This document shows, piece after piece, positions 1-64,000 of a stretch of 64,000 bases of DNA. The notes under the pieces were generated by a model that was not told the DNA's origin, ran no database searches, and saw nothing but the letters and a program-made list of their open reading frames with translations. A program made the translations under genes and the position numbers. The stretch's first letter is position 1. Each line of letters begins with the position of its first letter. Source of the stretch: an uncultured Candidatus Cloacimonadota bacterium (lineage in GTDB: Bacteria; Cloacimonadota; Cloacimonadia; Cloacimonadales; JAJBBL01); contig CAYXFD010000013.1 of assembly GCA_964464175.1 (NCBI GenBank), positions 8,391-72,390 on the forward strand. The letters are read 5' to 3'.

Positions 1-156
1 AGCAAAGCAAATATCAATTTTGAGATTATCAGGCATCTGACTCGAATATGGAGCCAAAGGGGGTTTATAAGTATCCGCCAATACGAAGCTTTATCTAATC
101 AAATCAATCTGATCGGGGCTCAGATAGGGGGTTGGAAAAAAAAAGATGGAAAATAA
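1..156 (+). CDS. avd: Accessory variability determinant (Avd-like four-helix-bundle protein), C-terminal fragment; 5' end outside window
   Basis: The frame-1 translation has no stop from base 1: SKANINFEIIRHLTRIWSQRGFISIRQYEALSNQINLIGAQIGGWKKKDGK*. The stop is at 154-156. The helical heptad-like sequence ends in the basic IGxxxGGWxK tail typical of Avd / 23S-rRNA-IVS family proteins. It ends 2 nt before the RT start codon. Confidence 0.65.
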   Translation, partial: SKANINFEIIRHLTRIWSQRGFISIRQYEALSNQINLIGAQIGGWKKKDGK

Positions 157-158
157 CG

Positions 159-1238
159 ATGCCTAAGAGGATTGGCTATCTTTACGAAAAGATTTATGAT
201 TGGAGCAATCTCTTAAACGCTTATCATAAAGCCGGAAGGTCAAAAAAAGAGAGACCGGATGTATTAGGCTTTGAGTTTGATTTAGAGAACCAATTGGTTC
301 TGATCCAAAGAGATTTGAAGGCTCAGGCTTACAGATTCGAGGGGTATCACAAATTCAATATTTATGAACCGAAAGAGCGAACTATCCATTGTGCTCCCTT
401 TAGAGATAGAGTAGTACATCACGCCATTAGCAATATCCTTAATCCGATCCTCGATCGCAGTATGATTCCGGACACTTATGCCTGCAGAAACAATAAAGGA
501 CTCCATCGTGCCTTAAAAAGGGCATTCTACTTCTACAGAAACTCTCGCTACTGCTACAAATTTGACGTCAGGAAGTTTTTCTACACAATTGATCATGAAA
601 TCTTGATGAGGAAAGTTTCCGGAAAAATCAAAGATCCGAAATTGTTGAATCTGCTGAGAGAGCTCCTTAATACATACGATAGCGGTATCGACTACTATTT
701 TCGTTTTGAACAAGATGATCTGATTGATATGATGAGGAACAGGGGTCTTCCCATAGGTAATCTAACAAGCCAAATCTTCGGAAACTTTTTCCTTTCTGAT
801 TTAGATCACTTTATCAAAGAGGATTTGAGACAGAGGTCTTATATACGTTATATGGATGATGCTTTAGTTTTTGCAGAAAACCTGGAAGAGCTTAAAACTG
901 CTAAATCTAAGATCACAAACAAATTAGCTGAAGACCGTCTGTTCATTCATCCCGATAAAAACATAATTAGCAATGTAAAAAGGGGGATCAATTTCTTAGG
1001 GTTCAGATTTTTTCAAGATCAGATCAGACTTCAGAATAAGAATCTCGTTAGATTCAAGAAAAAGCTAAAAAAAAGAGCACAACTGAACCTCTCTTATGCT
1101 GAGCATTTACTTAGTTTAAACGGACATTTGGGGTTTATTTCTGCCGGTAACACATTTAGGATTACGGAGATAGTATTGTCGGAAGTTGAGTTTAACCACA
1201 ACCAAAAAAAATACAGTTTTACTTTACAAAGGGTATGA
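159..1238 (+). CDS. DGR-type reverse transcriptase
   Basis: RT motifs are present: RTIHCAPFRDRVVHHAI, YKFDVRKFFYTIDHEIL, LPIGNLTSQIFGNFFLSDLD and SYIRYMDDALVF (YMDD catalytic box). LPIGNLTSQ is the I/LGxxxSQ motif-4 signature of DGR RTs. The N-terminus MPKRIGYLYEKIYDW is typical, so ATG 159 is preferred over the TTG at 132 given in the ORF track. Confidence 0.9.
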   Translation: MPKRIGYLYEKIYDWSNLLNAYHKAGRSKKERPDVLGFEFDLENQLVLIQRDLKAQAYRFEGYHKFNIYEPKERTIHCAPFRDRVVHHAISNILNPILDRSMIPDTYACRNNKGLHRALKRAFYFYRNSRYCYKFDVRKFFYTIDHEILMRKVSGKIKDPKLLNLLRELLNTYDSGIDYYFRFEQDDLIDMMRNRGLPIGNLTSQIFGNFFLSDLDHFIKEDLRQRSYIRYMDDALVFAENLEELKTAKSKITNKLAEDRLFIHPDKNIISNVKRGINFLGFRFFQDQIRLQNKNLVRFKKKLKKRAQLNLSYAEHLLSLNGHLGFISAGNTFRITEIVLSEVEFNHNQKKYSFTLQRV

Positions 1239-1380
1239 TACGAACATTAGAGCCGTTTTGCGTGGCGGGTCGTGGAACAACAACGACAACAACTGTCGTG
1301 TTGCCAACCGCAATAGGAACAATCGGTCAAACACCAACAACAACAACGGGTTTCGTGTTGCCAAGACTGTTTTTTGCCGG
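1225..1380 (+). repeat. DGR template repeat (TR), approximate boundaries; non-coding RNA template
   Basis: It starts at the RT stop codon. Read in the 1186 frame it gives YDTNIRAVLRGGSWNNNDNNCRVANRNRNNRSNTNNNNGFRVAKT, the C-terminal loop of an FGE-sulfatase/C-type-lectin fold. There are 12 AAC and 2 AAT codons within the 24 codons at 1276-1347, the adenine-rich pattern used by DGR mutagenic retrohoming. Exact ends cannot be set without the VR. Confidence 0.75.
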
Positions 1381-1661
1381 AATCGCTGTTCTAATAAAAC
1401 AGGAGAGAGCAAGAGAAAAGAGTCCAGTATCTTATCCTGTGCCCACAGAGCCGAAGTATATGATGAAGGTTAGTAGCAGAGTCGAAAGCCGGAAATTTTA
1501 TGATGTATTCGATTTTTAAGAATGCAGGCAACTTAGCTTGTTTTTGGAGTTAATAGGTTAACCGGATAGGATTTGCTGAAATTCGGGTGTATTTAAATAA
1601 GGAATGAATTCTTTATTGACGTAAGACGATAGTTATTAGTTCGAGGAATCGGGAGTTATTT

Positions 1662-2603
1662 ATGAAACTGCTATGTGATAATTGTGGTAAAGAGATTTTT
1701 GGTTCGGTAAATTTTTGCCCTTTTTGCGGTGAAGAAGCTCCACGGAAGACTGTTGTTTTTGGTGATTCTGCGAAGAAGATCGAAAATCCCAAATACTGTC
1801 CCGATTGCCGCCAGGCTAATCTTAGAAATGCTATGTTTTGTTCTATTTGTGGAGAAATGATCTATAAGAAACCGGAAAAAGAAGTGATCTTCTGTGGAGA
1901 ATGCGGAGAGAAGAATAAAAGTAAAGCTGTGATCTGCTGCTCTTGCGGCATTTCTTTAGCCGATTGGTTTACAATGAAAGGAAAGGTGGCTGAGGAGTTA
2001 AGTTATAAGGGGAATCTGAAACTGACTGAGAAAATGAACGGTATTACTTACATTTTTCTCTCAAAACCACTCTTTACTATTGGCAGAAGAGAAGAGAATG
2101 ATCTGGTAATCAAATGCCGATGGGTTTCAGGTAAACACTGCTATTTCGACTTACAAAAACAATTATTTATAGATTCCAGCCGGAACGGTACTTTTATCAA
2201 CCGTAACCCTACTCATATCAAGAGTGAAAAGATGCCATTCATTTCAGAGTTTAATGTTGCAGGTTCATTTACCTTTTCTTTTCTAAAGAAAGATAATCTC
2301 TATTGTTTGCACCTGGGTGCCATTTTAGACGAGGAAGAGTGCCGAAGAAATGGTGATGGAGAGAGTTTCGACAGATTAAGAAAAAACTACTATCTGTTCA
2401 CCACGGGAGACTTCAAGGTTGATATCCAAAAGCTCGATGGGGCGATAACATCAAAGAAGAAAAGACCAGGTGTTTCTCTTTATACTATACATCAGGAGAA
2501 TGGTTACTACTACTATACTGACATAGACCGTGGTTTGGAACGAATACTGATCATGAAGGACAATAATATACTACCCGATCATTGGATTATTGACTTCGTA
2601 TGA
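1662..2603 (+). CDS. Triple zinc-ribbon / FHA domain protein
   Basis: Three CxxC...CxxC ribbons are present (CDNCGKEIFGSVNFCPFCG, CPDCRQANLRNAMFCSICG, CGECGEKNKSKAVICCSCG). They are followed by an FHA core, FTIGRREENDLVIKCRWVSGKHCYFDLQKQLFIDSSRNGTFINRNP. The ~110-aa C-terminal region is unassigned. Confidence 0.8.
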   Translation: MKLLCDNCGKEIFGSVNFCPFCGEEAPRKTVVFGDSAKKIENPKYCPDCRQANLRNAMFCSICGEMIYKKPEKEVIFCGECGEKNKSKAVICCSCGISLADWFTMKGKVAEELSYKGNLKLTEKMNGITYIFLSKPLFTIGRREENDLVIKCRWVSGKHCYFDLQKQLFIDSSRNGTFINRNPTHIKSEKMPFISEFNVAGSFTFSFLKKDNLYCLHLGAILDEEECRRNGDGESFDRLRKNYYLFTTGDFKVDIQKLDGAITSKKKRPGVSLYTIHQENGYYYYTDIDRGLERILIMKDNNILPDHWIIDFV

Positions 2604-2807
2604 TAGGGCTACATAAACCGGAAGATTGAGTTATGAGAAAGTATCAATAATTTCGATGGAAGATTAAGAATTCTAAAACTTGGGCACATATTAGGCACAC
2701 AATATTTTGTAATTTAGTCATTAGGTCGGACACAAATACTTGCTAACATATTGATAAAATTATATATAGGCATACATATATAGCAGTCCCCAAAGAGTTG
2801 CTTCTTG

Positions 2808-2856
2808 TGATTCGTAATCAGTAGGTCGGGGGTTCGAATCCCCCTTTTAGCTCCAG
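2808..2856 (+). pseudogene. tRNA-Thr(CGU)-like 3' fragment (anticodon loop to CCA) with no 5' half; putative att-site scar
   Basis: The sequence is tga-TTCGTAA-tca-gt-aggtc-GGGGG-TTCGAAT-CCCCC-ttttagc-t-cca. It has a 7-nt anticodon loop with U33 and A37 and anticodon CGT, an AGGTC variable loop, a perfect T-arm with a TTCGAAT loop, a 7-nt acceptor 3' strand, a discriminator and an encoded CCA. Pairing breaks down upstream of 2808, and no D-arm or 5' acceptor strand (gctaaaa) exists within 120 nt. Confidence 0.55.
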
Positions 2857-3609
2857 TTTTAAATCTCTTCTATTCAGTCACTTATATCACTTCTTAGTCT
2901 AATCATTGCAGTATTTAGGGAATCAATATACAACATGTCAGTAACTATTTCTGAAGATAAGGTACCAGATATCCTGTTTGAACTTGTTGGTCAAATATTC
3001 TGCGGATGCATTCTGGATTAGCTGACAGAATCAAGAATAGGGTAAAAAAACAAGCTTGTGAGGTCTTTTCTGTAGCTGATGCATAGATTGCAGCCTTAAT
3101 CAAGAAAGGTTGGATTTGTCCCGCCACAGGAGCCTATTCAATGCTTCGCTTGCCTATTCCTCTATCATACCTTCTTTAGTTTTTCTTCTTAGTATGGCTC
3201 AAAATATGCCGGGTAGTCTTCTCTCTGAGTGAGTGGATAGGATACCCTTATCGCATTTATCTGAGAGAAGACTCAGCAAAATGTCTGCGAGAAAATGAGT
3301 GTATTCAGTGCTGTAGCTGAACCCATGGAGAAAACAGATAGTATAAGATACGTGATGCCTTATCTAAAACGATAGAGAATCCGGACCAGCGCTCCCTATA
3401 CTCATTATCTATTACTGCATCACAGCTAATAACTGCAACATAGTCAGCCGTTGTTATCTCAATTTTTTCGCGGGGTTTGGGAAGAACATATTCTCCTGTT
3501 CACGTTAACTCTACCCTAAGTAATGGCTCGTTGACGAAGTCATTGATAATAATCTGGTTATCAATGATTTTTCCAATAGTCTGAAGAGTGAAGCGGAGGC
3601 AGATAATCA

Positions 3610-10021: not shown

Positions 10022-12820
10022 ATGAAGCATGTTTTTTTATTATCGTTTATCTTATTATTGACAGTAGTCTTGTTTGCAGAATCGGTTGATCATGATACCG
10101 CTCTAACTGCAGCAAGTAACTGGTTGAATCATCAAAACAATTTAAGGGGCAATTACCCGGATCTTTCAGTTAAGGACTTTTACATCCATCGACTTGAAGG
10201 TCAAATAATCTTTTATGTCTTTGATTTCGAACCGCAAGGTTTCGTTATGGTAGCCGGAAGCGATGCCTCAAGTCCAATTCTCGGTTACAGTGTATCGGGT
10301 TCGAGTAGTTTAGGTGATTTCCCTCCTAACGCTGCCTCATTCTTCTCGATCTATGAGAGAGGCATGTTGGATATCAATAATAATGAATTATCAAATGAGT
10401 ATTCTATAGGTGACTGGGAAGCTATTTTGACCGGGAACATTCCTTCTCCCCATCGCTCACGGGCAGTATCACCGCTGTTGTCAACTCAGTGGAATCAGAA
10501 CTATTCATGGAATACATCATGTCCTGCTGATGTCAACGGTCCGGGTGGTTACGTTTATGCCGGATGTCCTGCAGTAGCAGCGGCACAGGTAATGAACTAC
10601 TGGGAGCATCCGGACCAGGGCACCGGTTCACACTCTTATACTCATACCCAATACGGTTTACTCTCGGCAAATTTCGGAACTACTACCTATGATTGGTCAA
10701 GCATGTCTGATACCACTCCCACGAATTCAATCAGACAGCTGCTATTTCATCTTGGTGTTGCAACTGAGATGGACTACGGTCCTTATGGTTCAGGAGCTTA
10801 CTCTTCTGATGCCCGGGATGCTCTGGTAGATTTTTTTGATTATGATGCTTCAGCTTCATTAGAGTGGAAGTATAATTATTCTCACAACGAGTGGATATCG
10901 CTTCTCAAAGAACAGTTAGATAACAGTTACCCTTTATTCTATCATGGTTATGACTCAACTCATAGTTCCGGACATGCCTTTAATTGTGACGGCTATGATG
11001 CCAGTGATAATTTCCATTTCAATTGGGGTTGGAGTGGCAGTTATGACGGATATTTCAACCTCAATAGTCTTAATCCGGGAAGTCATGATTTCAGTTATTT
11101 ACAGGCAGCGATTGTTGATGTATATCCAGCATCGCAGCTTCCCGCTCCCCAGAACTTAACCGGCTATGCAGGCGGGGCAAAGGTATTTCTTTCCTGGTCA
11201 GCTCCCGCTTCCCGTTCCCTCCAGGGATATAACGTTTACCGTTTTGGGACCAAGATCAACCAGAGCCTGATAAACGGGTTGGAATACGAAGATACAGATG
11301 TTATGAGTCCCGGTATTTATCAGTATTATGTAACAGCAGTTTATGATTCGGGAGAATCCGGAGCTTCGAATACTGTTACCATGGAAACCTATAATCCTTT
11401 ATCCCTACCATTTTCGGAGAACTTCGATACAGTTAGTGAAATCCCTGTTTATTGGCATTTAGATGATCACATTGGCAACGGTCAGGTGTGGCAGGTAGGA
11501 ATTGTTTTCGGAGGGTTAGTGACAAGCGGTAATTATGCTTTTCTAAACAGCCATAATTACGGGTCAGGTAATACTCAGAATTGTGACCTGATAACTCCCG
11601 TTTTAGATCTGACGAATTACCGTAATATTCAGCTCTCTTTCAGCCACTATTTCAAACAGAAAGCGCTCTCTTCCACAGCAACTCTGTCTTATAGTTTGGA
11701 TAATGGTGCTTCCTGGACAGCGATAGACTCCTGGACAGACGATACTGCTAATCCGGATTTCTTTAGTTCTTTTATTTCTGCTGTAGATAAGGAATCTGAA
11801 GTCAGATTCAAATGGAATTATACCGGTACATGGGGTAATTACTGGTGTATAGATAATATTGATATAGTCGGGGAGGAATTAGTCATTCCGCCTGAAGGAA
11901 CAATGGTTGAAGGCTTTTTCTTTTCACATGACAATCCAGAATCGATCTCTTACGATCCCGAACCCGCAGATCCGCCGGATCCTCCGGAAGATTACAATAA
12001 TCTACTGTTAATTGGAGTTTCCGGTTCAGGACTAGTTCAGTTCACGATATCGGCAGATCCGCAAACATCTGGGTTTTACTATGTATCAGGAGGATGGTCG
12101 GCACCACATGCCTGTATTGATAACGAGATTGTCTTTAATATCGATTTTGGAAGAGGCGACGCTTATATCTTTCTTGGTGATGAAGATGATCCTCCGCTTC
12201 CGGTAGAGCTTTCTTCCTTCACTGCTAATATTACTGCCGATATGTTTGTGAACCTCGAATGGCGGGCAGAGTCAGAAACTAATATGCTTGGCTATAACGT
12301 GTTTCGCGCTTCGGAAGACAGTGTTACAGAAGCTGCGAAAGTAAATCCGGTTACGATTGAAGCCCATAATGAAAGTGTAGCAACTGACTATTATTATGTT
12401 GATCAGAATGTCTTTAGTGGTCAAGAATACTACTATTGGCTGGAGTTGATCGATCTCGATCTGACAACTAATTTCCATGGTCCTGTTTATGTCTTTGTGA
12501 ACGAAGATGAGGAATCAGGAACAACGCCGGTTCTTCTTGAAACCAGACTGATCGGAGCTTATCCCAATCCTTTCAATCCTGAAACCGCTGTAAGGTTCTC
12601 TGTCGCAGAAACTACAAAGGTATCTATCACAGTTTACAATCTGCTCGGACAAAAGATGCAGTCTCTTTTGATTAACGAACTCTACGATAAAGGAAGACAT
12701 TCAGTTGTCTGGAATGGAAGGGATGCCGATAATCAACCTGCTGCTTCCGGGATTTATTTCTACAGAATGAAAACCGATGACGGTTTTGAGGATTTCAAAA
12801 AAATGCTCTTGCTGAAGTAG
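10022..12820 (+). CDS. Secreted C10-family (streptopain-like) cysteine peptidase with T9SS-type C-terminal sorting domain
   Basis: It has a signal peptide and an N-terminal inhibitor-like prodomain. The catalytic Cys context is YVYAGCPAVAAAQVMNYWEHP and the His context is SSGHAFNCDGYD. The C-terminus is IGAYPNPFNPETAVRFSV...GIYFYRMKTDDGFEDFKKMLLLK. Confidence 0.8.
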   Translation: MKHVFLLSFILLLTVVLFAESVDHDTALTAASNWLNHQNNLRGNYPDLSVKDFYIHRLEGQIIFYVFDFEPQGFVMVAGSDASSPILGYSVSGSSSLGDFPPNAASFFSIYERGMLDINNNELSNEYSIGDWEAILTGNIPSPHRSRAVSPLLSTQWNQNYSWNTSCPADVNGPGGYVYAGCPAVAAAQVMNYWEHPDQGTGSHSYTHTQYGLLSANFGTTTYDWSSMSDTTPTNSIRQLLFHLGVATEMDYGPYGSGAYSSDARDALVDFFDYDASASLEWKYNYSHNEWISLLKEQLDNSYPLFYHGYDSTHSSGHAFNCDGYDASDNFHFNWGWSGSYDGYFNLNSLNPGSHDFSYLQAAIVDVYPASQLPAPQNLTGYAGGAKVFLSWSAPASRSLQGYNVYRFGTKINQSLINGLEYEDTDVMSPGIYQYYVTAVYDSGESGASNTVTMETYNPLSLPFSENFDTVSEIPVYWHLDDHIGNGQVWQVGIVFGGLVTSGNYAFLNSHNYGSGNTQNCDLITPVLDLTNYRNIQLSFSHYFKQKALSSTATLSYSLDNGASWTAIDSWTDDTANPDFFSSFISAVDKESEVRFKWNYTGTWGNYWCIDNIDIVGEELVIPPEGTMVEGFFFSHDNPESISYDPEPADPPDPPEDYNNLLLIGVSGSGLVQFTISADPQTSGFYYVSGGWSAPHACIDNEIVFNIDFGRGDAYIFLGDEDDPPLPVELSSFTANITADMFVNLEWRAESETNMLGYNVFRASEDSVTEAAKVNPVTIEAHNESVATDYYYVDQNVFSGQEYYYWLELIDLDLTTNFHGPVYVFVNEDEESGTTPVLLETRLIGAYPNPFNPETAVRFSVAETTKVSITVYNLLGQKMQSLLINELYDKGRHSVVWNGRDADNQPAASGIYFYRMKTDDGFEDFKKMLLLK

Positions 12821-15004: not shown

Positions 15005-15736
15005 ATGAAATGGTTTGTATTTCTTTCAATGCTTTTTTTCTTGACCGGGTCGCTGGCTGCCCTTACAGGTTTTGGAGATTCAACAATAAATGTTGAGTTG
15101 GATGAAACAATACCGGATGATCCTTTACCGGTTGAACTATCGTCATTCACAGCAGCTCTTACTTCTACACGGTTTATTGAGTTACGTTGGGTCTCAGAGG
15201 CTGAGTATAGTATGTTGGGCTATAATGTCTATCGTGGTATAAATGGGGATTTATCGGAAGCACTGAAGATTTCATTAGAGATTATTCCGGCATATAACTA
15301 CTCTTTTTCTACTAACTACAGCTTTGTTGATGAAGACGTAGTTGCGGGGAATGTCTTTTTTTACTGGCTGCAAGCTGTTAATCTCGATTTGACGAACAAG
15401 TATTTCGGTCCTTTATCTGTAATCATTGATGATCAGGAAGAAGATACTCCTTTGATCTTTATCACCTCATTAGGAAAAAACTATCCGAACCCTTTCAATC
15501 CCAACACAATTATTGAATACAGTATTAGAGAAGAGACCGAAGCAGTTTTGAGAATCTATAATGTACGGGGTCAGATTGTAAAGACACTTTTCTCAGGGGT
15601 AAGAGAAGCGGGAAATTACCGGGAAAAATGGAACAGTATTGACAGTCAGGGTAGAGAGGTTGCATCCGGAGTTTATTTATATCGGCTTACGACCGATCAC
15701 TATGACAGAATCAATAAGATGCTACTTGTCAAGTGA
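15005..15736 (+). CDS. Small secreted protein: LPVELSSFT module plus T9SS-type C-terminal sorting domain
   Basis: It has a signal peptide and the module DDPLPVELSSFTAALTSTRFIELRW...GYNVYR...FFYWLQAVNLDLT. The C-terminus is NYPNPFNPNTIIEYSI...GVYLYRLTTDHYDRINKMLLVK. An RBS (ggagga) is present. Confidence 0.75.
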   Translation: MKWFVFLSMLFFLTGSLAALTGFGDSTINVELDETIPDDPLPVELSSFTAALTSTRFIELRWVSEAEYSMLGYNVYRGINGDLSEALKISLEIIPAYNYSFSTNYSFVDEDVVAGNVFFYWLQAVNLDLTNKYFGPLSVIIDDQEEDTPLIFITSLGKNYPNPFNPNTIIEYSIREETEAVLRIYNVRGQIVKTLFSGVREAGNYREKWNSIDSQGREVASGVYLYRLTTDHYDRINKMLLVK

Positions 15737-19305: not shown

Positions 19306-20352
19306 TTACTTCAGCAGCAGCATTTTCCGGGTTTTCTTGGCACCAGAGGAGGATTCCAGAGCATAAATGTAAATACCTGAAGAGAAGCGGGCAGCATTCC
19401 AATGATAGGAATGAGAGCCTTCCCCGAATTGTTTTTGCAGTAATTTCTCTCCTTTCGGATTATAGATAGTGAGTACCCCGGTTTCTCCCCAATTTATCGA
19501 AAAAGCGATTGTTGTTGACGGGTTGAAAGGGTTCGGAGAGTTCTGTAATAATTGAGTTTCGGGAAAATCGATTGAGCTGTCGTCATCACTGCTGTTGGGA
19601 AACCAGATCAGTCCGGCAAATTCCGGGTAATCGATAAAGGGATTTCTGTTTTGCTGATATTGATAATAGATGACATCATTACGGTATAGTTCCCTGTCAT
19701 CAACCGGATCTTCTGTATGCCATTGATAGAGAGTTGACAATACTCCATGGTAAGGCTCATTATTGGGGGATGAGGGGGCATAATCAACAAGTTCCAGGTC
19801 AGGTTCGCCAAAGCCTCCTTCATATCTGACTGCCATGTAGAACATCATTCGGGCAACATCACCCTTGTCTTCAGGGCGCGGTTCCCAGGTATAGGTTGTG
19901 GTATAGCATCCTGTCGGACCGTCAGGATCTATGTATTCAATTCCGCCGTTATCGAAATCCTTGTTACCGCGAGCCGAATTGACCGAAATATCGGAAGCCC
20001 GGACATGATGCACATCTGTTCCGGCTCCCATAGAAGTTCCGAAATCACCGTGGGAAACAGCCCAGACATGTTCCCGGTTCCAACCGTTTCCGTTATTGTA
20101 TTCCTGCGCGGCATCCACCGACCAGCCTGTATAGATGAGAATAACGTTAGCGGGATTATCAGGGTCTCTGTCGGTAACCTTAAGGATATCCCATGTTTGT
20201 GAGTAGGAGAATTGAATATGATCTTTGATGATATGGTGAAGAGCTGATTTCAGTTCACCGCCGGTTAAGTTCTCTGTTCCGTTGTAATAACCTTCCGGGA
20301 TCTGAGCCTGCAACAGTGAACCGAGAAACAACAAAACAACAATATATTTCAC
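19306..20352 (-). CDS. Endonuclease I family extracellular nuclease with T9SS-type C-terminal sorting domain
   Basis: It has NREHVWAVSHGDFG and DVHHVRASDISVNSARGNKDF (Endonuclease I / extracellular RNase active-site motifs). The C-terminus is NSPNPFNPSTTIAFSI...GIYIYALESSSGAKKTRKMLLLK. It uses a GTG start with a gggagg RBS. Confidence 0.8.
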   Translation of the reverse strand: MKYIVVLLFLGSLLQAQIPEGYYNGTENLTGGELKSALHHIIKDHIQFSYSQTWDILKVTDRDPDNPANVILIYTGWSVDAAQEYNNGNGWNREHVWAVSHGDFGTSMGAGTDVHHVRASDISVNSARGNKDFDNGGIEYIDPDGPTGCYTTTYTWEPRPEDKGDVARMMFYMAVRYEGGFGEPDLELVDYAPSSPNNEPYHGVLSTLYQWHTEDPVDDRELYRNDVIYYQYQQNRNPFIDYPEFAGLIWFPNSSDDDSSIDFPETQLLQNSPNPFNPSTTIAFSINWGETGVLTIYNPKGEKLLQKQFGEGSHSYHWNAARFSSGIYIYALESSSGAKKTRKMLLLK

Positions 20353-20673: not shown

Positions 20674-23600
20674 ATGGGGAGCTGTACGGACAAGGTTATT
20701 CTACTAATTGATAGTGATGATAGAGCTGCGAATGACCTGAGAAGGGTCATCGAGAAGTATGGCTACAGCGTTATAATTGCTGATAGCGGCAAAAAAGCTC
20801 ATGAGGTTATCGACTCCGATACTAATATTGACCTTGTAATGCTTGATGCTTCCCTTGATAAGGGAACAGATGTTATAGCTACGGCACAATCTATACTTGA
20901 TAAAAGAGATTTACCCTTGATTTTTCTGACTACCGAAGGTTCGGAACACGAGATAAGAAAGAGTGAAAATATTGTTACCTACGGGTTTATAGATAAGGGT
21001 TCGAAAGCATATCTTGTTATAGCCACTATAAAGACTGCATTAAGAATATATGAAATACAGCGAAAACTATGGACACATGTCAATCGTAACGCGGCACTCA
21101 TCCGGGTAATCCCCGACCTGCTTTTTGTCATTGACCGGAATGGGTTTTACCGTGAGATTTATGCCTCTGACGATGACTTGCTTGCTCTACCACCGGAAGA
21201 GCTCATCGGGAAGTCACTCTCCGCTGTTTTTTCCCAGGATGCTGTTAATAGTTTTCTGGAATCATTCCGGGTATGCCTGGAGACAGGAAAACTTCAGGCC
21301 TTAGAATACGAGTTAACTGTCAATAAGGAGCGCAGGTTCTTCAGGGCGAGAATAACAAGATTCAATGAGGATAGTGTTTTATCTGTTGTTCAGGATATAA
21401 CAGAGAGCAAAAAGGCAAAGAATAAGATCGAAAGTTTGAACTCGCTGCTTCTGTCCATTCGTAATGTTAATCAGCTAATTGTTCAGGAAGATGATCTTTT
21501 GGCTGTAATGAGAGGAGCGAGTGAGATTCTCGTTGAGACCTGGCAATATCTGAATATCGAGATCTCGCTCATTGATGAGAGGACAGGAAAGATATCTCCG
21601 GTAACCAGTGCCGGAAAGTTAGGACACGGAGACTGGTTTGTTATTCCTGAAGTAGATGGAAATGCTCCCACGTGTATTAACGATGCCGTAAAAGAAAGAA
21701 GGACAATAGAATTAGAAGATTATCAAACATACTGTAAGGACTGTCCCTATTTTAGCATAGCTTTTCCGCATAAAAAAATAGTCATCCCTATGCTTGAAAA
21801 TGATCAACTAATAGGCCTAATGTGTGTCTCCACCACACCCGAACAAGTCTTCTTTGCCGAAGAGATAGAACTGCTGGAAGAGGTTGCAGCCGATCTGGTA
21901 TATGCCGGAAAGAAGCTGAAAGCCGAACAGAAGATCAAAGAGAAGAATCGTCTGTTAACGATCCTGAATGATTATTCAATGGAATTATCCTCCGTTACCG
22001 TATCAAATAATATTTATTCTCTGATTTCGCATAAGCTAAAAGAGATAACTAATGCAAAGTTTGTTTCGATATCGATCTATGAGGAAAAGACTTCGAGTTT
22101 GATTGTAAAGTTTACCACGATATCTGAAGAGAGTAATAAGAAATTGTCCGGAATAATTGGCAGAAAACTGGAAGAACTTCGTATGAAAGTAACACCAGAG
22201 ATGTACCGCCGGATAACTCAGGAAGTTGTTGGTGACGCAGGCTCTCTTGAGGAGACGACTTTTGGGTCTATCCCAAAAGTAGTTAGCAATATGATTCAAA
22301 AGGTTTTCGGTGTCGAGTGGTTTACCGGAATTGCGCTCATGCATAAAGAGAGTCTGGTGGGCACAGTAGTCATCATTGGAGATAAAGAAACAAAAAGACC
22401 GGACAACGAAGATCTAAAGGCTTTTGCCGGAGTTACAGCAAATGCTCTGCAGAGATGGAAAGCCGAAAAATCTCTTCTGGAGAGTCACAGTAAATGGCAA
22501 TTTGCCCTGGAAGGGACTGGTGATGGTATCTGGGACTGGGACATCGAGAATGGAAAGGTTAACTATTCCGCTAATTTGAAGAAAATGCTCGGATATGAAG
22601 ACAATGATCTGGAGAGTACAATGCAGCAAAAGGAAAAACTCATCCACTCCGAGGATCTGTCTCACTACCGGAAGAAACTTCAGAGTCATCTGAAAGATAA
22701 AACAGCATTTTTTTCCGACGAATGCCGGATGCTATGCCGGGACGGCAGCTACAAATGGGTTTTAGACCGGGGAAAAGTAATCAGGAGATCAGCAGGGAAA
22801 AGCCCCTTGAGAATGATCGGAGTTCAGACCGATCTCTCTTATCTAAAGGAGACTGAGCAGGAACTGCGGGAGAGTGAATACCGTTATACTACGATCGTAA
22901 ATAATGCTTATGACGGGATAATTCTGCAGAATGCCCAGGGGGAGATATTAACCTGGAATAAAGCAGCTGCCAGAATACTCGGTATTTCGGAAAAAAGAGT
23001 AGTCGGGCATACTTCACTCAACCGGGAATGGGATACTATCAGAGAAGATGGTTCTGCTTATCCCAAAGAAGAGCATCCCTCCATGATAACCCTCAAAACC
23101 GGCAAGCCGTGCAGGAATGTCATAATGGGATTCAAGAAAAGATCGGGCAAGGTTACCTGGATCAATATCAATACCAGTCCTTTATTCAAAAGCGAGGATC
23201 CCCAACCTTATGCAGTAATTATCTCTCTCTCAGACATTACGGAAATAAAAAAGGCAGATAAATCTTTGAAGGAGAGTGAGTTAAGATACCGCTTGATCTT
23301 TGAAAATTCTAAAGATGCCATGATGACTCTGGAACCACCCACCTGGAGATTTACCTCCGGAAATTCAGCGATCTTCGACATGTTCAAGGCAAAGGATTTA
23401 GCTGAGTTTACAGCCTGTGAACCATGGAAACTCTCTCCTGAAAAACAACCTGACGGAACGTTATCAGAAGAAAAAGCAAAGAGAATGATCGAGATAGCAA
23501 TGCGAAAAGGTTCCAGCTTTTTCGAGTGGACTCATAGAAGACTGACCGGAGAAGAGTTCTCTGCTACTGTCTTGCTGACCAGAATTGAAATGAGCGGGTC

Positions 23601-26600
23601 GAGATTTCTTCATGCAACTGTCCGTGATATCTCCGAACGGAAAAGAGATGAAACGATAAGAATTATCCAGGCTAATATTGCCCATGCTGTTTCTGTTGCT
23701 GAATCACTTTACGAGTTGTATGAGATAGTCCGGGAGGAATTGAGTACTTTACTTGATACCAGGAACTGTTTTATTGCTTTCTACGATGAAACAACCGGTA
23801 TGTTTTCCACTCCTTTCGAGAAAGACGTTAAAGACTCAATAAAATCCTGGGCTGCCGACGGTTCTTTAACAGGATATGTGCTCAAAAGGAAGAGAGCTAT
23901 CCTGCTTAGCAAAGAAAGGATCGAGAAAATGGCAGAAGCCGGCAGGGTCAGGAAGATTGGAACAACGGCAGAAAGCTGGTTAGGGGTACCAATCAAGATC
24001 GACGGTAAATATAAGGCTGTTTTCGTTGTGCAAAATTATAAGAACAAGAATGCTTACGACAAAAACAGTGTAGAGTTGTTAAGACTTATTGCCGAGCAGT
24101 TGAGTATCTATATTGACCATAAGAAGGCAGAAGACAAGCTGGCAGAAGAGAGAAAACAGCTGCTGTCGATATTTGACAGTATCGATGAAGCGATCTATAT
24201 TTCTGATCCTGAGACCTATGAGATATTGTTTGTTAATAAGACCCTAAAATCGGTTTTCGGAAAGGACCTGATCGGTGGGATTTGCTACCGGGAACTACAA
24301 AACCGCGAAACTCCCTGTGAATTTTGCACGAATGACAAAATACTGAAAAATAAGGGTTCATCCTATAATTGGGAACACAATAATCTCCATCTGCAAAGAG
24401 ATTTTCTGATAACCGACAAGATTATCAAATGGACTGACGGGCGTGATGTCCGTTTTGAGATAGCCAGAGATTTTACAGAATCCAAAAAAGCTCAGGAAAG
24501 AGTTAAGGATTTAAACTCATTACTAATGGCAATCCGGAATGTCAATCAGTTGATAGTTCAGGAAGATGATCTGTTCAAGGTGATGCAGAATTCCTGTGAA
24601 ATATTGCTGGAGACCAGACAGTATCTGAATATCGAGATCTCCTTATTAGATGAGAGTGAGGAGTTTATCAGACCTTATGCCACTTCCGGTGAACATGAAA
24701 AATCTGACTGGCAGATTTCTCTCACCGGAGAAGGTTCTGTGCTAAAGTGTATCAAAGAAACGGTATTGACAGGAAAATCAGTTGTTGTCTCTGATCCGGA
24801 TAACTATTGCCGGACATGTCCCGAGATAAATGATGATTCTCTGCATGAAACAGTAGTAATTCCGATAAGCCAGAATGAACGGCCTGTCGGGCTAATGCGC
24901 ACCTGTATGATACAGGGACATAAGATCACTCAGGATGAGATCGATCTGCTGGAGGAAGTAGCCGGTGATCTGGGTTTTGCCCGGGCAAAGATTTTAGCCG
25001 AGAAGAGTCTGCAAAGCAGTGAGGAACTATTCCGGAATCTCTATGAAAACGCTACTATCGGGATTTACCGGACAACCCCTGAGGGGGAGATCCTTTTAGC
25101 CAATCAGTCTTTGATCACGATGCTCGGTTTTGAGTCGTTCGAAGAGCTGAAGAATCGTAATCTGGAAAAAGATTATTTCGAAGCGAGGTACAGCAGAAAG
25201 AGTTTCAGAGAACGGCTTGACCGCGAAGGTTTTGTCAAAGGGTTGGAAACATCCTGGAGACTGATGAACGGCAAGATTATCACAGTCCTGGAAAGTGCCA
25301 GAGTTATCCGTGATAACTCAGGAAATCCTCTTTATTATGAGGGTACTGTGGAAGATATTACTGATAACAAACGGGATGCTGTCATCAAAGAAGTTCAGTA
25401 TAATATAGCCCATGCCGTTGCTTCAGCGAAAGATATCAGTGAACTGTATGAGATAGTAAGAGACGAACTCGCCAAATTGATCGATACTACCAATTTTTAT
25501 ATAGCCCAGTATAATGTAGCTGCCGATGAGTTTTCTTCCCCATACTTCATCGATGAAAGAGATAATATTGCAGTCTGGGATGCGAAGAAATCTTTAACCG
25601 GCTATGTTTTGAAGCAGAAGAAAGCTGTTTTAGTGAATAAAGAAGAACTATTGAAGCTTTATGAAATGAGAGAGGTAGATCTAATCGGGGAAGTGGCTGC
25701 AAACTGGTTAGGTGTACCTGTCAGGATTACCGGAAATGTCTGGGGTGTTATTGTAGTTCAGAGCTATGAAGAAAAGGATATCTATGATGACCACAGCATC
25801 AGAATCCTGGAACTGATAGCCAATCAGTTGAGTATTTATATAGAGCGGAAGCTTGGAGAAGAGAGCCTTCAGGAAAGTGAACGGAAGCAGGCTGCACTTT
25901 TGGCTAATTTACCCGGTATGTCCTATCGTTGTAAGAACGACAGAGATTGGACAATGGAATTTGTTAGTGATGGTTGTCTGGATCTGACGGGTTATAGACA
26001 GGAGGAACTGCTGCTTAATGAGAAATTGTCCTTCAATGAGTTGATTTTTCCCGAGTATAGGGAAATGCTTTGGGAGAAATGGCAGGAAATTTTAGCTCGA
26101 AAGGAAGATTTTGCCGGCGAGTACAAAATCCTAACCAAAGATGGTCAGGAGAAGTGGGTATGGGAACAAGGAAGCGGCGTCTATACGGAAGAGGGTGAAG
26201 TGATAGCTTTGGAGGGGTTTATTACCGATATTACAGAGCGAAAACAAGCAGAAGAGGATAGAGAGGTATTAGAGGCTAAGCTCATTCAGGCTCAGAAGAT
26301 GGATGCAATAGGCAGACTTGCCGGTGGCGTTGCTCACGATTATAATAACATGCTCGGTGTTATTCTTGGTCACACGGAAATGATCCTGGCGGATATGGAT
26401 CCCCATGATCCCAATTATCCTAATCTGAAAGAGATAAAAAAGGCGACGGAGAGATCAGCTGATCTGACTAAACAGCTTCTGGCTTTTGCCCGTAAACAGA
26501 CAATATTCCCTAAAAAACTTAATCTGAACAGCAGTATTGATGATATGCTCAGAATGTTGCAGAGACTGATAGGGGAGAACATAGAGTTATCCTGGAAACC

Positions 26601-40651: not shown

Positions 40652-42412
40652 ATGAAAATTAGTACAAGATTTTCTTTCTTTATTTTACTCTTGGTTTTAT
40701 TGCTTGGAAGTTCTACTTTTTTATGGTCTCAATCACTTACTTTTGATATTACCGATCTTCAGGGAGTGCACCGTTGGGCTCCGATAAAAGGACCTCATAT
40801 CTTTACTGTCTATACCCCGGCTCCCGTGATGGTTTTTGCCTGGTCAGGTTTTGACTGGTTAGATGGGGTTACAGAGTCGGTGTTTATCGAATCAGAAGGG
40901 GTTGATGATCTATTGGGAGTTGATCCGGTAGTTGAAATGTATGTTAGCGGCTTTGATCTGCACTCTCTGGAATTCGTCAATGTCGTAAATTTTGGGGGTG
41001 ATCCCTTTACCCCGGGCGAGAGAGGGGATTTCCGTATTTATACAGGCGGCACAGCAACTATGCATTTGAACGGGGTCAAGATCGCCGAAGCTTCTAATTT
41101 TCAGGTAGATATCCTGGTCTCATATCCTGTTATCGGCGGAGGTCCCGGACAGCTTGCTCAAGCAGTCGGGGTAGCAGATATAAACATGGCAGAGACAGAT
41201 CCTGATTGGGTAGTGAGATTTGATAACGGAAGCGGACAGTTTGAATTCGAATTTGAAAACTTTACTGCCGGGATCGGTCCTAATCACGATACAACCGTAA
41301 CAATTTTAAGCAGGGATGTTCACACAACAGTTGATGATGCTATTTTAGTTGCCGACGATACGGTTGATTTTGATGCCTCAATAGGCGTAGTAGTAGATTT
41401 TGAATTCACTGATCCGATGGTCTATGATGAAGGGGCTGGTGAGGTAGAAGTTGTTAAAACGCTAACGGTAAATAAAATATATGGAGATGCAGGTGGAGTA
41501 CTTCCTGCAGAAGTACTTTCCTTCAATAGCCAATTTTATTACCGTTTCGGAGCTGTTTTAGATGGTTTTCAATGTGATATTACTTTTGATCTTTCTGAAG
41601 TTCCTAATCTTCCCACTGATCTGGAAGATGTTGTGTTTATGAGAAGACCGAAACGAGCACCTCAGGATTATGTTTGGGAAGTTATACCTAATGAGATAGA
41701 AATTCTCTCAGTCACACCACCAAGACTGTTAGTAAAGGATGTTACCGGTTTTAGCGAGTGGGGAATCGGCTTCTTAACAGACGATTCATTACCGGTAGAA
41801 TTGAGTTCTTTTACCAGCAGTGTTACGGCTAACGGTTTTGTAGAGCTGACCTGGATAACAGAAAGTGAAAGCAATATGCTCGGTTATCATATTCATCGGG
41901 CTGAAGATAACAATGTAGCCTTGGCAGAAAAGATTACCGGCGAGGTAATTAATGCCGAAAATTCATCGACCACGGTTTATTACAACTATACCGACAAAAA
42001 TTTACCTACAGCCGGTACTTACTACTATTGGTTAGAGTTTGTGGAGTTAGACCTGACTTCCGGTTTCCACGGACCAATCTCTGCAGTAGTATCTTTTGAT
42101 AATGATGATGATACTCCGGGAATAGTATATAGAACAGAGTTGATCGGTGCTTTCCCTAATCCTTTCAATCCTGAAACTTCGATCGAGTTCACTTTAGCTG
42201 ATCCTTCCCATGTTACTTTGAGAATCTTTAACAGCAGGGGACAATTGGTTAAGGAGTTACTTGCCAATGATCAATTAGCTGCAGGTTTTTACTCGGAAGT
42301 TTGGGATGGAAGGGATAACTCAGGGGCTTCAGTAGGCTCAGGAGTATATTTCTACCGGATGAAGGTTGATAATAGTTACGATATGATTAAGAAGATGGTG
42401 CTTGTTAAGTAA
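40652..42412 (+). CDS. Secreted hypothetical protein: LPVELSSFT module plus T9SS-type sorting domain
   Basis: It has a signal peptide and SLPVELSSFTSSVTANGFVELTW...GYHIHR...YYYWLEFVELDLT. The C-terminus is IGAFPNPFNPETSIEFTL...GVYFYRMKVDNSYDMIKKMVLVK. Confidence 0.75.
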   Translation: MKISTRFSFFILLLVLLLGSSTFLWSQSLTFDITDLQGVHRWAPIKGPHIFTVYTPAPVMVFAWSGFDWLDGVTESVFIESEGVDDLLGVDPVVEMYVSGFDLHSLEFVNVVNFGGDPFTPGERGDFRIYTGGTATMHLNGVKIAEASNFQVDILVSYPVIGGGPGQLAQAVGVADINMAETDPDWVVRFDNGSGQFEFEFENFTAGIGPNHDTTVTILSRDVHTTVDDAILVADDTVDFDASIGVVVDFEFTDPMVYDEGAGEVEVVKTLTVNKIYGDAGGVLPAEVLSFNSQFYYRFGAVLDGFQCDITFDLSEVPNLPTDLEDVVFMRRPKRAPQDYVWEVIPNEIEILSVTPPRLLVKDVTGFSEWGIGFLTDDSLPVELSSFTSSVTANGFVELTWITESESNMLGYHIHRAEDNNVALAEKITGEVINAENSSTTVYYNYTDKNLPTAGTYYYWLEFVELDLTSGFHGPISAVVSFDNDDDTPGIVYRTELIGAFPNPFNPETSIEFTLADPSHVTLRIFNSRGQLVKELLANDQLAAGFYSEVWDGRDNSGASVGSGVYFYRMKVDNSYDMIKKMVLVK

Positions 42413-62927: not shown

Positions 62928-64000
62928 TTATTTGATCAAAAGCATCTTTCGTGTTTCAGTCTGTTTATCCGTGCTCAATCTGTAGAGATAGATACCACTC
63001 GCTACCGGTTTATTGTTACTGTCTTTACCGTTCCAGACGGAATAATGTTCTCCTGAAACAAGATAATCGTCAATAAGAGTAGTGATAAGCTGCCCTTTCA
63101 GGTTATATATCTGAAGCGAAACCTGCATCTCATCAGGAAGAAGAAATCTGATAGTCGTGTCCGGATTAAAGGGATTAGGGAAGTTTTGATCCAGCATTCC
63201 GGAAGGTATAGTGACAATTTCTTCGGCATAGGGAGGAGGAGACCAGGTAAAATCGAGATCCAGAGAGGTGTACATAATAGTACCCCCTGTTGCAGGTCCA
63301 TTACCGAGAATAGAGGAACCGAAATCGTTATCATCAAAGAACATCAAATGTATTCTGTGCCAGTCATCATAAAGGTGTTCCACACTATCGGCAAGATACC
63401 AGTAAACAGGTAGCATGCCCGATAATTCGGGAGTTTCCGAAGAGTTGAGATTAATCGCTTCGCTCCAGCTCTCACCATAATCAGCGGAGAGAAAAATCAG
63501 GGTGTTGACAGCTGACCGGCTCCCTCCGGAATCAGCGGAGCTGCTATTATCGGAACTGGTTATCGCATATGTCTGGAACAGTGCTATCAGTTTGTTGTCT
63601 CTTTGAACGATACGGAAGTAGTTTTCGTGATAGGCATCTTCCGGATCGGGCCAATATACTGGCCAGCTCGGATTGATGATCAGACTACCATTATTATCAA
63701 ACTCCGGGGGTATGCTCCAGGGCAGATATAATGATTCTCCGTCTTCGTGCCGGGGAAAGATATCCTTAAGGTAAAATGTTTCGGTGTTACGCTCAAATTT
63801 AACATGTTTTGTTGTCGTCATGCTGGGAAACCAACTGTTATCTTCAGCAAACAAGGCAAACATACCCTGGAAATGATAATTTCCCTGATCATCAATGATC
63901 GCGTTATGCCTATTCATATATATTGTATAACGCATATCCTGATAGGGTTGATTACTATCATCCAGGAAATAGTTATCCGGATTCGCGACAGGAATAGTCG
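62928..64000 (-). CDS. Secreted protein with T9SS-type sorting domain; 5' end outside window
   Basis: The reading frame stays open upstream of the ORF-track Met (63935) to the window edge (...TIPVANPDNYFLDDSNQPYQDMRYT...). The C-terminus is NFPNPFNPDTTIRFLL...GIYLYRLSTDKQTETRKMLLIK. Confidence 0.7.
   Translation of the reverse strand, partial: TIPVANPDNYFLDDSNQPYQDMRYTIYMNRHNAIIDDQGNYHFQGMFALFAEDNSWFPSMTTTKHVKFERNTETFYLKDIFPRHEDGESLYLPWSIPPEFDNNGSLIINPSWPVYWPDPEDAYHENYFRIVQRDNKLIALFQTYAITSSDNSSSADSGGSRSAVNTLIFLSADYGESWSEAINLNSSETPELSGMLPVYWYLADSVEHLYDDWHRIHLMFFDDNDFGSSILGNGPATGGTIMYTSLDLDFTWSPPPYAEEIVTIPSGMLDQNFPNPFNPDTTIRFLLPDEMQVSLQIYNLKGQLITTLIDDYLVSGEHYSVWNGKDSNNKPVASGIYLYRLSTDKQTETRKMLLIK

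Follow-up and report, generated by a model that had tools for sequence, protein, structure and literature searches.

Several described diversity-generating retroelements (DGRs) already join targeted protein diversification to signalling domains. DGR-diversified kinases, with kinase-CLec fusions as the targets, have been reported (PMC5758913; PMC7517822), and in the cyanobacterial examples (Vallota-Eastman et al. 2020, PMC7517822; composition b12, PMC5758913) a Hanks-type kinase carries a C-terminal CLec domain that contains the variable repeat (VR), more than one kinase paralog bears such a VR-type domain, and the variable proteins are mostly predicted to be cytosolic. In other systems (PMC10907252, 2024; Kaur et al. 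2020, PMC7159879) a diversified CLec/FGS domain is fused to a signalling domain, and one template repeat (TR) serves several targets that are predicted to reside in different cell compartments. The codon AAC is exceptionally common in TRs; it is the commonest TR codon, often stands in tandem and gives 15 amino acids, and the theoretical diversities of DGRs span 1e5-1e30 (Wu et al. 2018, PMC5758913).

How does the locus analysed here compare with these systems? We consider it very probable, from the sequence comparisons described below, that positions 1252-1368 of the window (the whole 64-kb stretch of DNA under analysis) are the TR of a chromosomal Cloacimonadota DGR that diversifies two upstream kinases, with the gene order target, target, avd, reverse transcriptase (RT), TR. 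The features of the locus are collected in Table 1.

Table 1. Features of the DGR locus; plain numbers are window positions, and L001 and L002 are public contigs that overlap the window.
Feature	Location	Strand	Remarks
avd, 3' end	1..156	+	last 51 codons and stop; window begins inside the gene; Pfam bAvd E = 1.2e-7 on the fragment
avd, full gene (110 aa)	L001 3709-4041		NCBIfam NF033474 and Pfam bAvd 7.4e-21
DGR reverse transcriptase (359 aa)	159..1238	+	Pfam RVT_1 2.3e-24; IGNLTSQ and YMDD
Incidental open frame (Asn frame), not a gene	1186..1473	+	only Pfam match is to the FGE-sulfatase C-terminus
TR	1252..1368	+	117 nt; ungapped match to VR1 with mismatches at TR adenines alone
RGGSW..GFR unit within TR	1261..1356	+	12 AAC and 2 AAT
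3' edge, IMH*-like boundary	1369..1376	+	TR GTTTTTTG versus VRs CGTTTATG; non-A divergence
Conserved non-coding region	1375..1495	+	GCCGGAA, hairpin, AGTCCAG (1421-1427), second hairpin, GGTTAGTAG..TCGAAAGCCGGA (1468-1493)
Zinc-ribbon and FHA protein (313 aa)	1662..2603	+	Pfam FHA 1.3e-8, DZR 1.8e-8, Zn_Ribbon_1 1.1e-8
721-aa target gene	L001 1382-3547		upstream of avd, outside the window
721-aa protein, zinc ribbon	N-terminus		
721-aa protein, Hanks-type kinase (Pkinase)	residues 76-321		
721-aa protein, hydrophobic helix	residues 358-378		Lys/Arg-rich stretch just before
721-aa protein, PASTA domain	residues 406-466		
721-aa protein, FGE-sulfatase/CLec domain	residues 478-718		Pfam E = 1.4e-57
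VR1	L001 3422-3538		348-464 nt upstream of window base 1; 3' end of the 721-aa gene; ungapped match to 1252-1368
VR2	L002 5552-5671		outside the window; 3' end of the 605-aa kinase-lectin paralog

Within the window the TR stands alone. No second copy was found in the 64 kb on either strand in a search that left TR adenines free to vary and tolerated up to 12 mismatches elsewhere, a search of the window for the RGGSW anchor returned only the TR, and the 3' flank that the VRs share, sought across the window with a tolerance of three mismatches, led to no VR; a generic repeat finder reported only the internal AAC self-similarity of the TR (family D20). An exact look-up of the RT protein led to four public contigs (L001-L004) that are 100% identical to the window in the overlap, which extends up to 11,238 nt, and window base 1 corresponds to L001 3886. 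There, VR1 forms the last 117 nt of the 721-aa coding sequence ahead of the final two codons (codons 681-719 of 721). TR and VR1 differ at 20 positions, every one of them a TR adenine, with no mismatch at the 82 non-A positions (hypergeometric P = 1.9e-13); 10 of the substitutions are to G, eight to T and two to C, and 12 of the 14 Asn codons are replaced. It is because all 20 mismatches fall on its own adenines that we assign the role of TR to 1252-1368. An earlier note, made from the letters of the window, had named this segment a TR and proposed that differences from a VR be tabulated position by position; the VR exists, outside the window, and the tabulation places its differences at adenines alone.

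The 32 codons of the Asn-rich unit read RGGSW NNNDNN CRVA N R N R N N R S N T NNNN GFR. The count given previously is exact in number and position, with 12 AAC codons (6, 7, 8, 10, 11, 16, 20, 24 and 26-29) and two AAT codons (18 and 21), and the frame in which it was made is the real VR frame, since the matching VR starts at codon 684 of its gene. Over six frames of the whole 64-kb window, 32-codon stretches contain a mean of 1.34 AAY codons (sd 1.21), and the top unrelated stretch contains nine, against 14 in this unit. Of the 35 adenines in the TR, which starts 14 nt past the RT stop codon, the first codon position holds 18, the second 16 and the third one; thus 34 of the 35 sit at positions 1 or 2, and 28 lie in the 14 AAY codons. 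Besides AAY, five codons can be recoded (GAC, AGG, ACC, AAG and ACT), while TCA permits only a silent change. With adenines placed in this way, therefore, 19 codons are recodable per round, and codon arithmetic gives a theoretical diversity of 7.3e19 protein variants and 1.2e21 DNA variants.

Some broader statements about the TR hold only in part. The scaffold codons had been described as free of A, and codons 12-15 (tgt cgt gtt gcc) are, but six other non-Asn codons of the TR contain A (GAC, AGG, TCA, ACC, AAG and ACT). Similarly, the rule that adenine mutagenesis never yields a stop codon applies to the AAY codons but not to the whole TR, in which mutation of AAG at 1363-1365 to TAG is possible, four codons ahead of the natural stop. 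Finally, the diversity had been called very high, which is a relative matter: in nine related DGRs the same positions hold 13-17 Asn codons (hand-counted from TR translations, in the unit equivalent to RGGSW..GFR), and 7.3e19 lies inside the published range of 1e5-1e30.

These nine relatives define what is normal for the clade. Their RTs are 48-62% identical to the window RT, they share the order target-avd-RT-TR, and their TRs follow the design W-NNNxNN-CRVxxR-...-NNNN-G[F/L]R; one further contig (L020) was left out of both this count and the RNA alignment described below because it has no TR directly after the RT. More distant DGRs have 6-13 AAY codons. Fourteen Asn codons are unexceptional, and the window TR is the norm for its clade. 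The TR itself is nothing new: AAC-rich templates are textbook DGR design, and the relatives have the same. The RT relatives are mostly annotated as Cloacimonetes/Cloacimonadota, and the best match among GTDB representative genomes is a Cloacimonadota MAG whose RT is 53% identical. In distant members of the RT clade the DGR adjoins or diversifies Peptidase_C14 or DUF4384 genes, and this RT lineage is therefore coupled to differing signalling or effector domains. The caspase-like Peptidase_C14 proteins and DUF4384 genes lie at L019 3679-6869, L020 1459-2988 and 4903-5751, and L021 4400-7066.

In DGRs, an IMH at the VR 3' end and a differing IMH* at the TR 3' end determine the direction of transfer. 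Here an A-free stretch, GGGTTTCGTGTTGCC, is common to TR and VR, and non-A divergence runs from 1369 onward; a 62-nt 3' flank (GGGTTTCGTGTTGCCAGGACTCGTTTATGATTACCC...) is identical in VR1 and VR2 and is absent from the TR beyond 1368. We read 1369 onward as marking an IMH*-like 3' boundary of the TR.

The remaining DGR parts are present and intact, with a full-length RT and a full-length avd. Against the model NF033474 ('diversity-generating retroelement protein Avd'; cutoff 80), the complete Avd reaches 96.7 bits. The RT has the features of the DGR clade, namely the [I/L]GxxxSQ motif and YxDD, and among solved structures its closest match is a 328-aa chain named 'Reverse transcriptase' (8ub7 series, E = 2.2e-47), which we take to be the Bordetella phage bRT; IGNLTSQ of the window RT aligns to IGSLTSQ of this chain, and YMDD aligns to YMDD. 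Among solved relatives, group II intron RTs match at 7e-21 or weaker. A group II intron RT/maturase was considered and rejected (TIGR04416, 129.3 bits against a cutoff of 300; Rfam reported no group II intron in 1-3200), as were Drt2-5 and retron St85 RTs (all at or below 55 bits against NCBIfam cutoffs of 200-550). All of the defining features of a DGR that can be examined in sequence are found at this locus: an RT, TR/VR differences at adenines, Avd, and a VR at the 3' end of the target.

What does this DGR diversify? The targets are two Ser/Thr kinases, neither of them a phage protein or a surface adhesin. The kinase of the 721-aa protein reads as intact, as GKGGFG, AIK, HKDIKPQN and DFG are all present when its motifs are read from the sequence, and the PASTA and C-type-lectin/FGE-sulfatase part of this transmembrane protein is predicted to be extracellular. 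A lectin-fold target had been anticipated from the TR, and the C-terminal FGE-sulfatase/CLec domain agrees, both by its Pfam match (Table 1) and by a match to Treponema denticola TvpA (PDB 2Y3C, E = 3.7e-50) that is gapless across the VR. The match to 2Y3C settles the fold, and, to judge from TvpA and further DGR variable proteins of known structure, the 14 Asn positions would line the binding surface. The 721-aa protein shares the layout of Stk1/PknB, which have a cytoplasmic Hanks kinase, one membrane helix and extracellular PASTA repeats; its Pkinase and single PASTA domain pass their Pfam cutoffs, yet it is no equivalog, because it scores 260 bits against NF033483 (Stk1/PknB) where the cutoff is 450; its C-terminal lectin domain is an addition to that layout. 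Kinase-FGE-sulfatase fusions are common in the protein database. The combination kinase-PASTA-FGE-sulfatase occurs only in the protein's own cluster among its best 120 database relatives.

The second target is a 605-aa paralog encoded directly upstream of the 721-aa gene. In this protein the kinase is joined straight to the lectin domain, neither a hydrophobic helix nor a PASTA domain was found, and it is predicted to be soluble. Further genes of the neighbourhood encode signalling domains. The zinc-ribbon-FHA gene comes after the DGR in all four of the identical contigs, and FHA and PP2C genes lie farther upstream in L002. Judging by gene neighbourhood, the 313-aa FHA protein is a possible phospho-threonine-binding partner of the diversified kinases.

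Comparison of VRs between and within contigs provides a record of past change. The 90% protein cluster of the 721-aa target contains three sequences, of which P0003 carries a different VR, and the same VR is present on metagenome contig L005 (VR5; the allele DNA was read from 1,144 nt of this contig, 1-1144). VR5 differs from the TR at 16 positions, all 16 at TR adenines, and from VR1 at 23 positions, again all at TR adenines, and between them VR1 and VR5 replace all 14 Asn codons. The lectin-domain DNA beside the VRs is about 11-14% diverged between the two alleles. As the 82 non-A positions are identical amid this divergence, both VRs appear to have been overwritten from the same template after the alleles diverged, which argues that homing has happened in nature. 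The two alleles are not a simple before-and-after pair, because they also differ outside the VR and in the downstream flank. Relative to the TR, VR2 has 20 A-to-N changes, a single G-to-A change at the 5' edge and, adjoining AAY codons, an indel of net +3 nt; indels beside AAC have been described for DGRs (PMC5758913). Given its indel and non-A mismatch, VR2 could be an older or less efficient target. Contigs L001, L002 and L003, from three samples, show 0 mismatches over the 3.9 kb upstream of the window, VR included; they are one clone, and hence there is no within-population VR variation among them.

Side by side with these VR comparisons, the P0003 protein is the same as the first allele over residues 1-517, and its lectin domain is a mosaic with patches like the 605-aa paralog. 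Likewise, the downstream flank of L005 matches the DNA after the 605-aa paralog in L001 (97.8% over 91 nt). Mosaic and flank together suggest gene conversion or rearrangement between the two targets.

Three other explanations of the Asn-rich segment and its surroundings deserve consideration. The element could be a fossil, in which TR, RT and Avd remain, retrohoming has ceased and the VR differences are old. The identical VRs of L001, L002 and L003, the presence of only three distinct target sequences in the 90% cluster, and the indel and non-A mismatch of VR2 all speak for such a history, which we nevertheless think unlikely: the identical contigs are merely one clone, the RT (YMDD, IGNLTSQ) and avd are full-length and intact, and the agreement of VR1 and VR5 with the TR at all 82 non-A positions, set against lectin DNA that has diverged between the alleles, argues for overwriting after they diverged. 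The chance is far smaller that the window segment is a duplicate of the kinase gene's 3' end that has decayed, lacks template function and is rich in adenine through drift or mutational bias. It is true that the segment is a partial copy of nearby coding sequence and that the rest of the gene is absent, but decay would have to account for 20 of 20 differences falling on adenines of the window copy, for a position directly after an Avd-RT pair, and for nine DGRs, with RTs only 48-62% identical to the window RT, that repeat its position, order and Asn pattern, and we give this idea next to no credence.

Hardly more credible is a real, small, low-complexity protein encoded by the Asn-rich frame (1186-1473) or by the publicly called frame (1235-1519). 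Both frames are open, and the gene callers used on the public contigs predict a product of 94 aa, but that ORF lies in a frame other than the Asn frame. The product of the Asn frame does match Pfam FGE-sulfatase (1.7e-5), over just the last 47 model positions, as a VR copy would; the match is there because the TR copies the VR. After GFR, the open stretch in the nine relatives ranges from six to 96 codons of unrelated sequence, the TR part alone being conserved, and the conservation that is seen 3' of the TR resides in base-paired blocks with compensatory changes, not in codons. The earlier note had held that translation of 1186-1473 would count against a template, and no sign of translation was found. 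Gene calls over TRs are found in inconsistent frames (window 1235-1519, L015 8068-8289, L019 3334-3624 and L021 3063-3482), and one of these ORFs has a weak FGE-sulfatase match. Public ORFs over DGR TRs are annotation artefacts, and the lesson for annotation is a practical one, given that spurious ORFs lie over the TRs in the four public contigs here and in several relatives.

What lies 3' of the TR? Blocks spanning about 120 nt (1375-1495) are conserved in 10 DGRs of the RT clade, the window and relatives with RTs 48-62% identical to its own. We propose 18 base pairs, which make up two hairpins and a three-base contact between the last bases of the TR, [A/G]CU, and a conserved AG[U/C]. In the alignment 92% of cells are paired under this proposal, compared with 22-52% in slid controls; compensatory changes occur in seven of the 18 pairs, and the observed covariation score was reached by no shuffle. 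The change from ACU/AGU to GCU/AGC covaries in 10 of 10 sequences between the TR 3' end (1366-1368) and the AGTCCAG block (1421-1427). These observations, from ten sequences in two subclades, are suggestive of a structured RNA 3' of the TR. By minimum free energy, 1369-1661 folds no more stably than its shuffled versions (z = 0.01), and a Rfam search of 1-3200 gave no family matching the region 3' of the TR. A scan of viral contigs for the GGTTAGTAG..TCGAAARCCGGA motif found nothing, and for a duplex between the two flanks of the TR, of the kind called 'cPRT stop' in BPP-1, there was only a weak 8-bp match containing G-U pairs. BPP-1 requires RNA on both sides of its TR, including the Sp segment for cis-priming, and 207 of 278 Avd-type DGRs are predicted to form stem-loops just 3' of the TR (Handa et al., bioRxiv 10.1101/2023.10.23.563531). 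In view of these stem-loops and of the need in BPP-1, an RNA element 3' of the TR is expected in kind, and by analogy 1375-1495 is probably the counterpart of the Sp RNA needed by the Bordetella RT-Avd.

Other parts of the window contain features of separate interest. At 2814-2852 (core 2827-2844) there is a fragment resembling the 3' end of a tRNA or tmRNA, with a T-arm (GGGGGTTCGAATCCCCC), an acceptor strand and CCA. It matches Rfam tmRNA at E = 3e-4, far under the gathering score, and ARAGORN found no complete gene in it; the fragment could be an integration-site remnant. Repeats at 12428-12609, 42020-42201, 15469-15501, 19520-19552 and 63150-63182 (D4, D6, I1 and I2) encode ...YPNPFNPET... 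at the ends of several large genes, a motif that we presume to be a T9SS C-terminal sorting domain, and a neighbouring C10 peptidase has a Por_Secre_tail match, in keeping with a host from the FCB group or Cloacimonadota. Direct repeats of 75-86% identity (D2, D7 and D12), at 21466-21581 and 24541-24656 (spacing 3075) and at 24084-24134 and 25812-25862, suggest tandem paralogous genes.

How might the DGR and its kinases work together? Following the Bordetella model, one transcript would span the TR and its conserved 3' flank, RT-Avd would reverse-transcribe the TR and misincorporate opposite adenines, and the cDNA would replace the last ~117 nt of the target genes. The A-free codons (RGGSW, CRVA, GFRVA) keep the lectin fold constant. 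Domain content and gene neighbourhood further suggest that the diversified lectin tip may be a ligand-sensing surface coupled to kinase output, with the products of the neighbouring FHA and PP2C genes as possible signalling partners. We tentatively propose, and rate the proposal at somewhat below an even chance, that one template reprograms two paralogous Ser/Thr kinases, one displaying its lectin tip outside the cell behind a PASTA domain and the other in the cytoplasm, and that together with the FHA/PP2C cluster they would form a receptor-kinase sensor pair in phospho-Ser/Thr signalling, comparable to the DGR 'antigen sensors' that have been proposed, except that the output is a kinase. As part of the same proposal, the contact of AG[U/C] (1421-1423) with [A/G]CU (1366-1368) could show where template and primer pair in DGRs of this clade.

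In this little-studied uncultured phylum, the locus provides a clean natural case of a DGR whose targets are signalling kinases and not adhesins or the receptor-binding proteins of phages, and its single template serves both a predicted extracellular sensor and a predicted cytosolic one. Should the kinases prove to be genuine ligand sensors, the locus would lend weight to the view that targeted hypermutation is a means by which bacteria evolve recognition of new signals or antigens. Furthermore, avd, the RT, the TR and about 130 nt of flanking RNA could serve as a compact module for engineering.

Finally, we compare the locus with known systems feature by feature. Like Bordetella phage BPP-1 (mtd, avd, TR, brt), it has an Avd and RT pair, adenine-only TR/VR differences, a VR at the 3' end of a target with a CLec fold, and a conserved RNA segment 3' of the TR. 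The number of variable codons in Mtd is about 12, and the window TR has 14 AAY codons. In BPP-1 the TR lies between avd and brt, whereas here it comes after the RT in the order target-avd-RT-TR, and BPP-1 is phage-borne with a tail-fibre receptor-binding target, whereas this DGR is chromosomal with kinase targets. TvpA of T. denticola is the best solved relative of the window target's lectin domain, with the RGGSW..C..GFR frame aligned without gaps; in both, the VR occupies the extreme C-terminus of a C-type-lectin domain of the FGE-sulfatase type, and the diversities are of similar order, about 6e20 for TvpA (PMC4891356) and 7.3e19 here. TvpA, however, is a single-domain lipoprotein whose locus has an HRDC-type accessory gene (PMC4891356), while at this locus Ser/Thr kinases carry the lectin domain as a fusion and Avd is the accessory protein. 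The locus resembles the systems of PMC10907252 and PMC7159879 in fusing a diversified CLec domain to a signalling domain and in its use of one TR for targets in different predicted compartments; in place of the STAND NTPase, MoxR and vWA components of those systems, none of which was seen near the window DGR, its neighbours are FHA, PP2C and zinc-ribbon-FHA genes. The cyanobacterial kinase-CLec DGRs share with it both the domain pairing and the presence of kinase paralogs. They differ in host lineage, as the RT clade here is mostly from Cloacimonadota, and in their mostly cytosolic variable proteins, in contrast to the membrane helix and PASTA domain found in one of the two targets described here.
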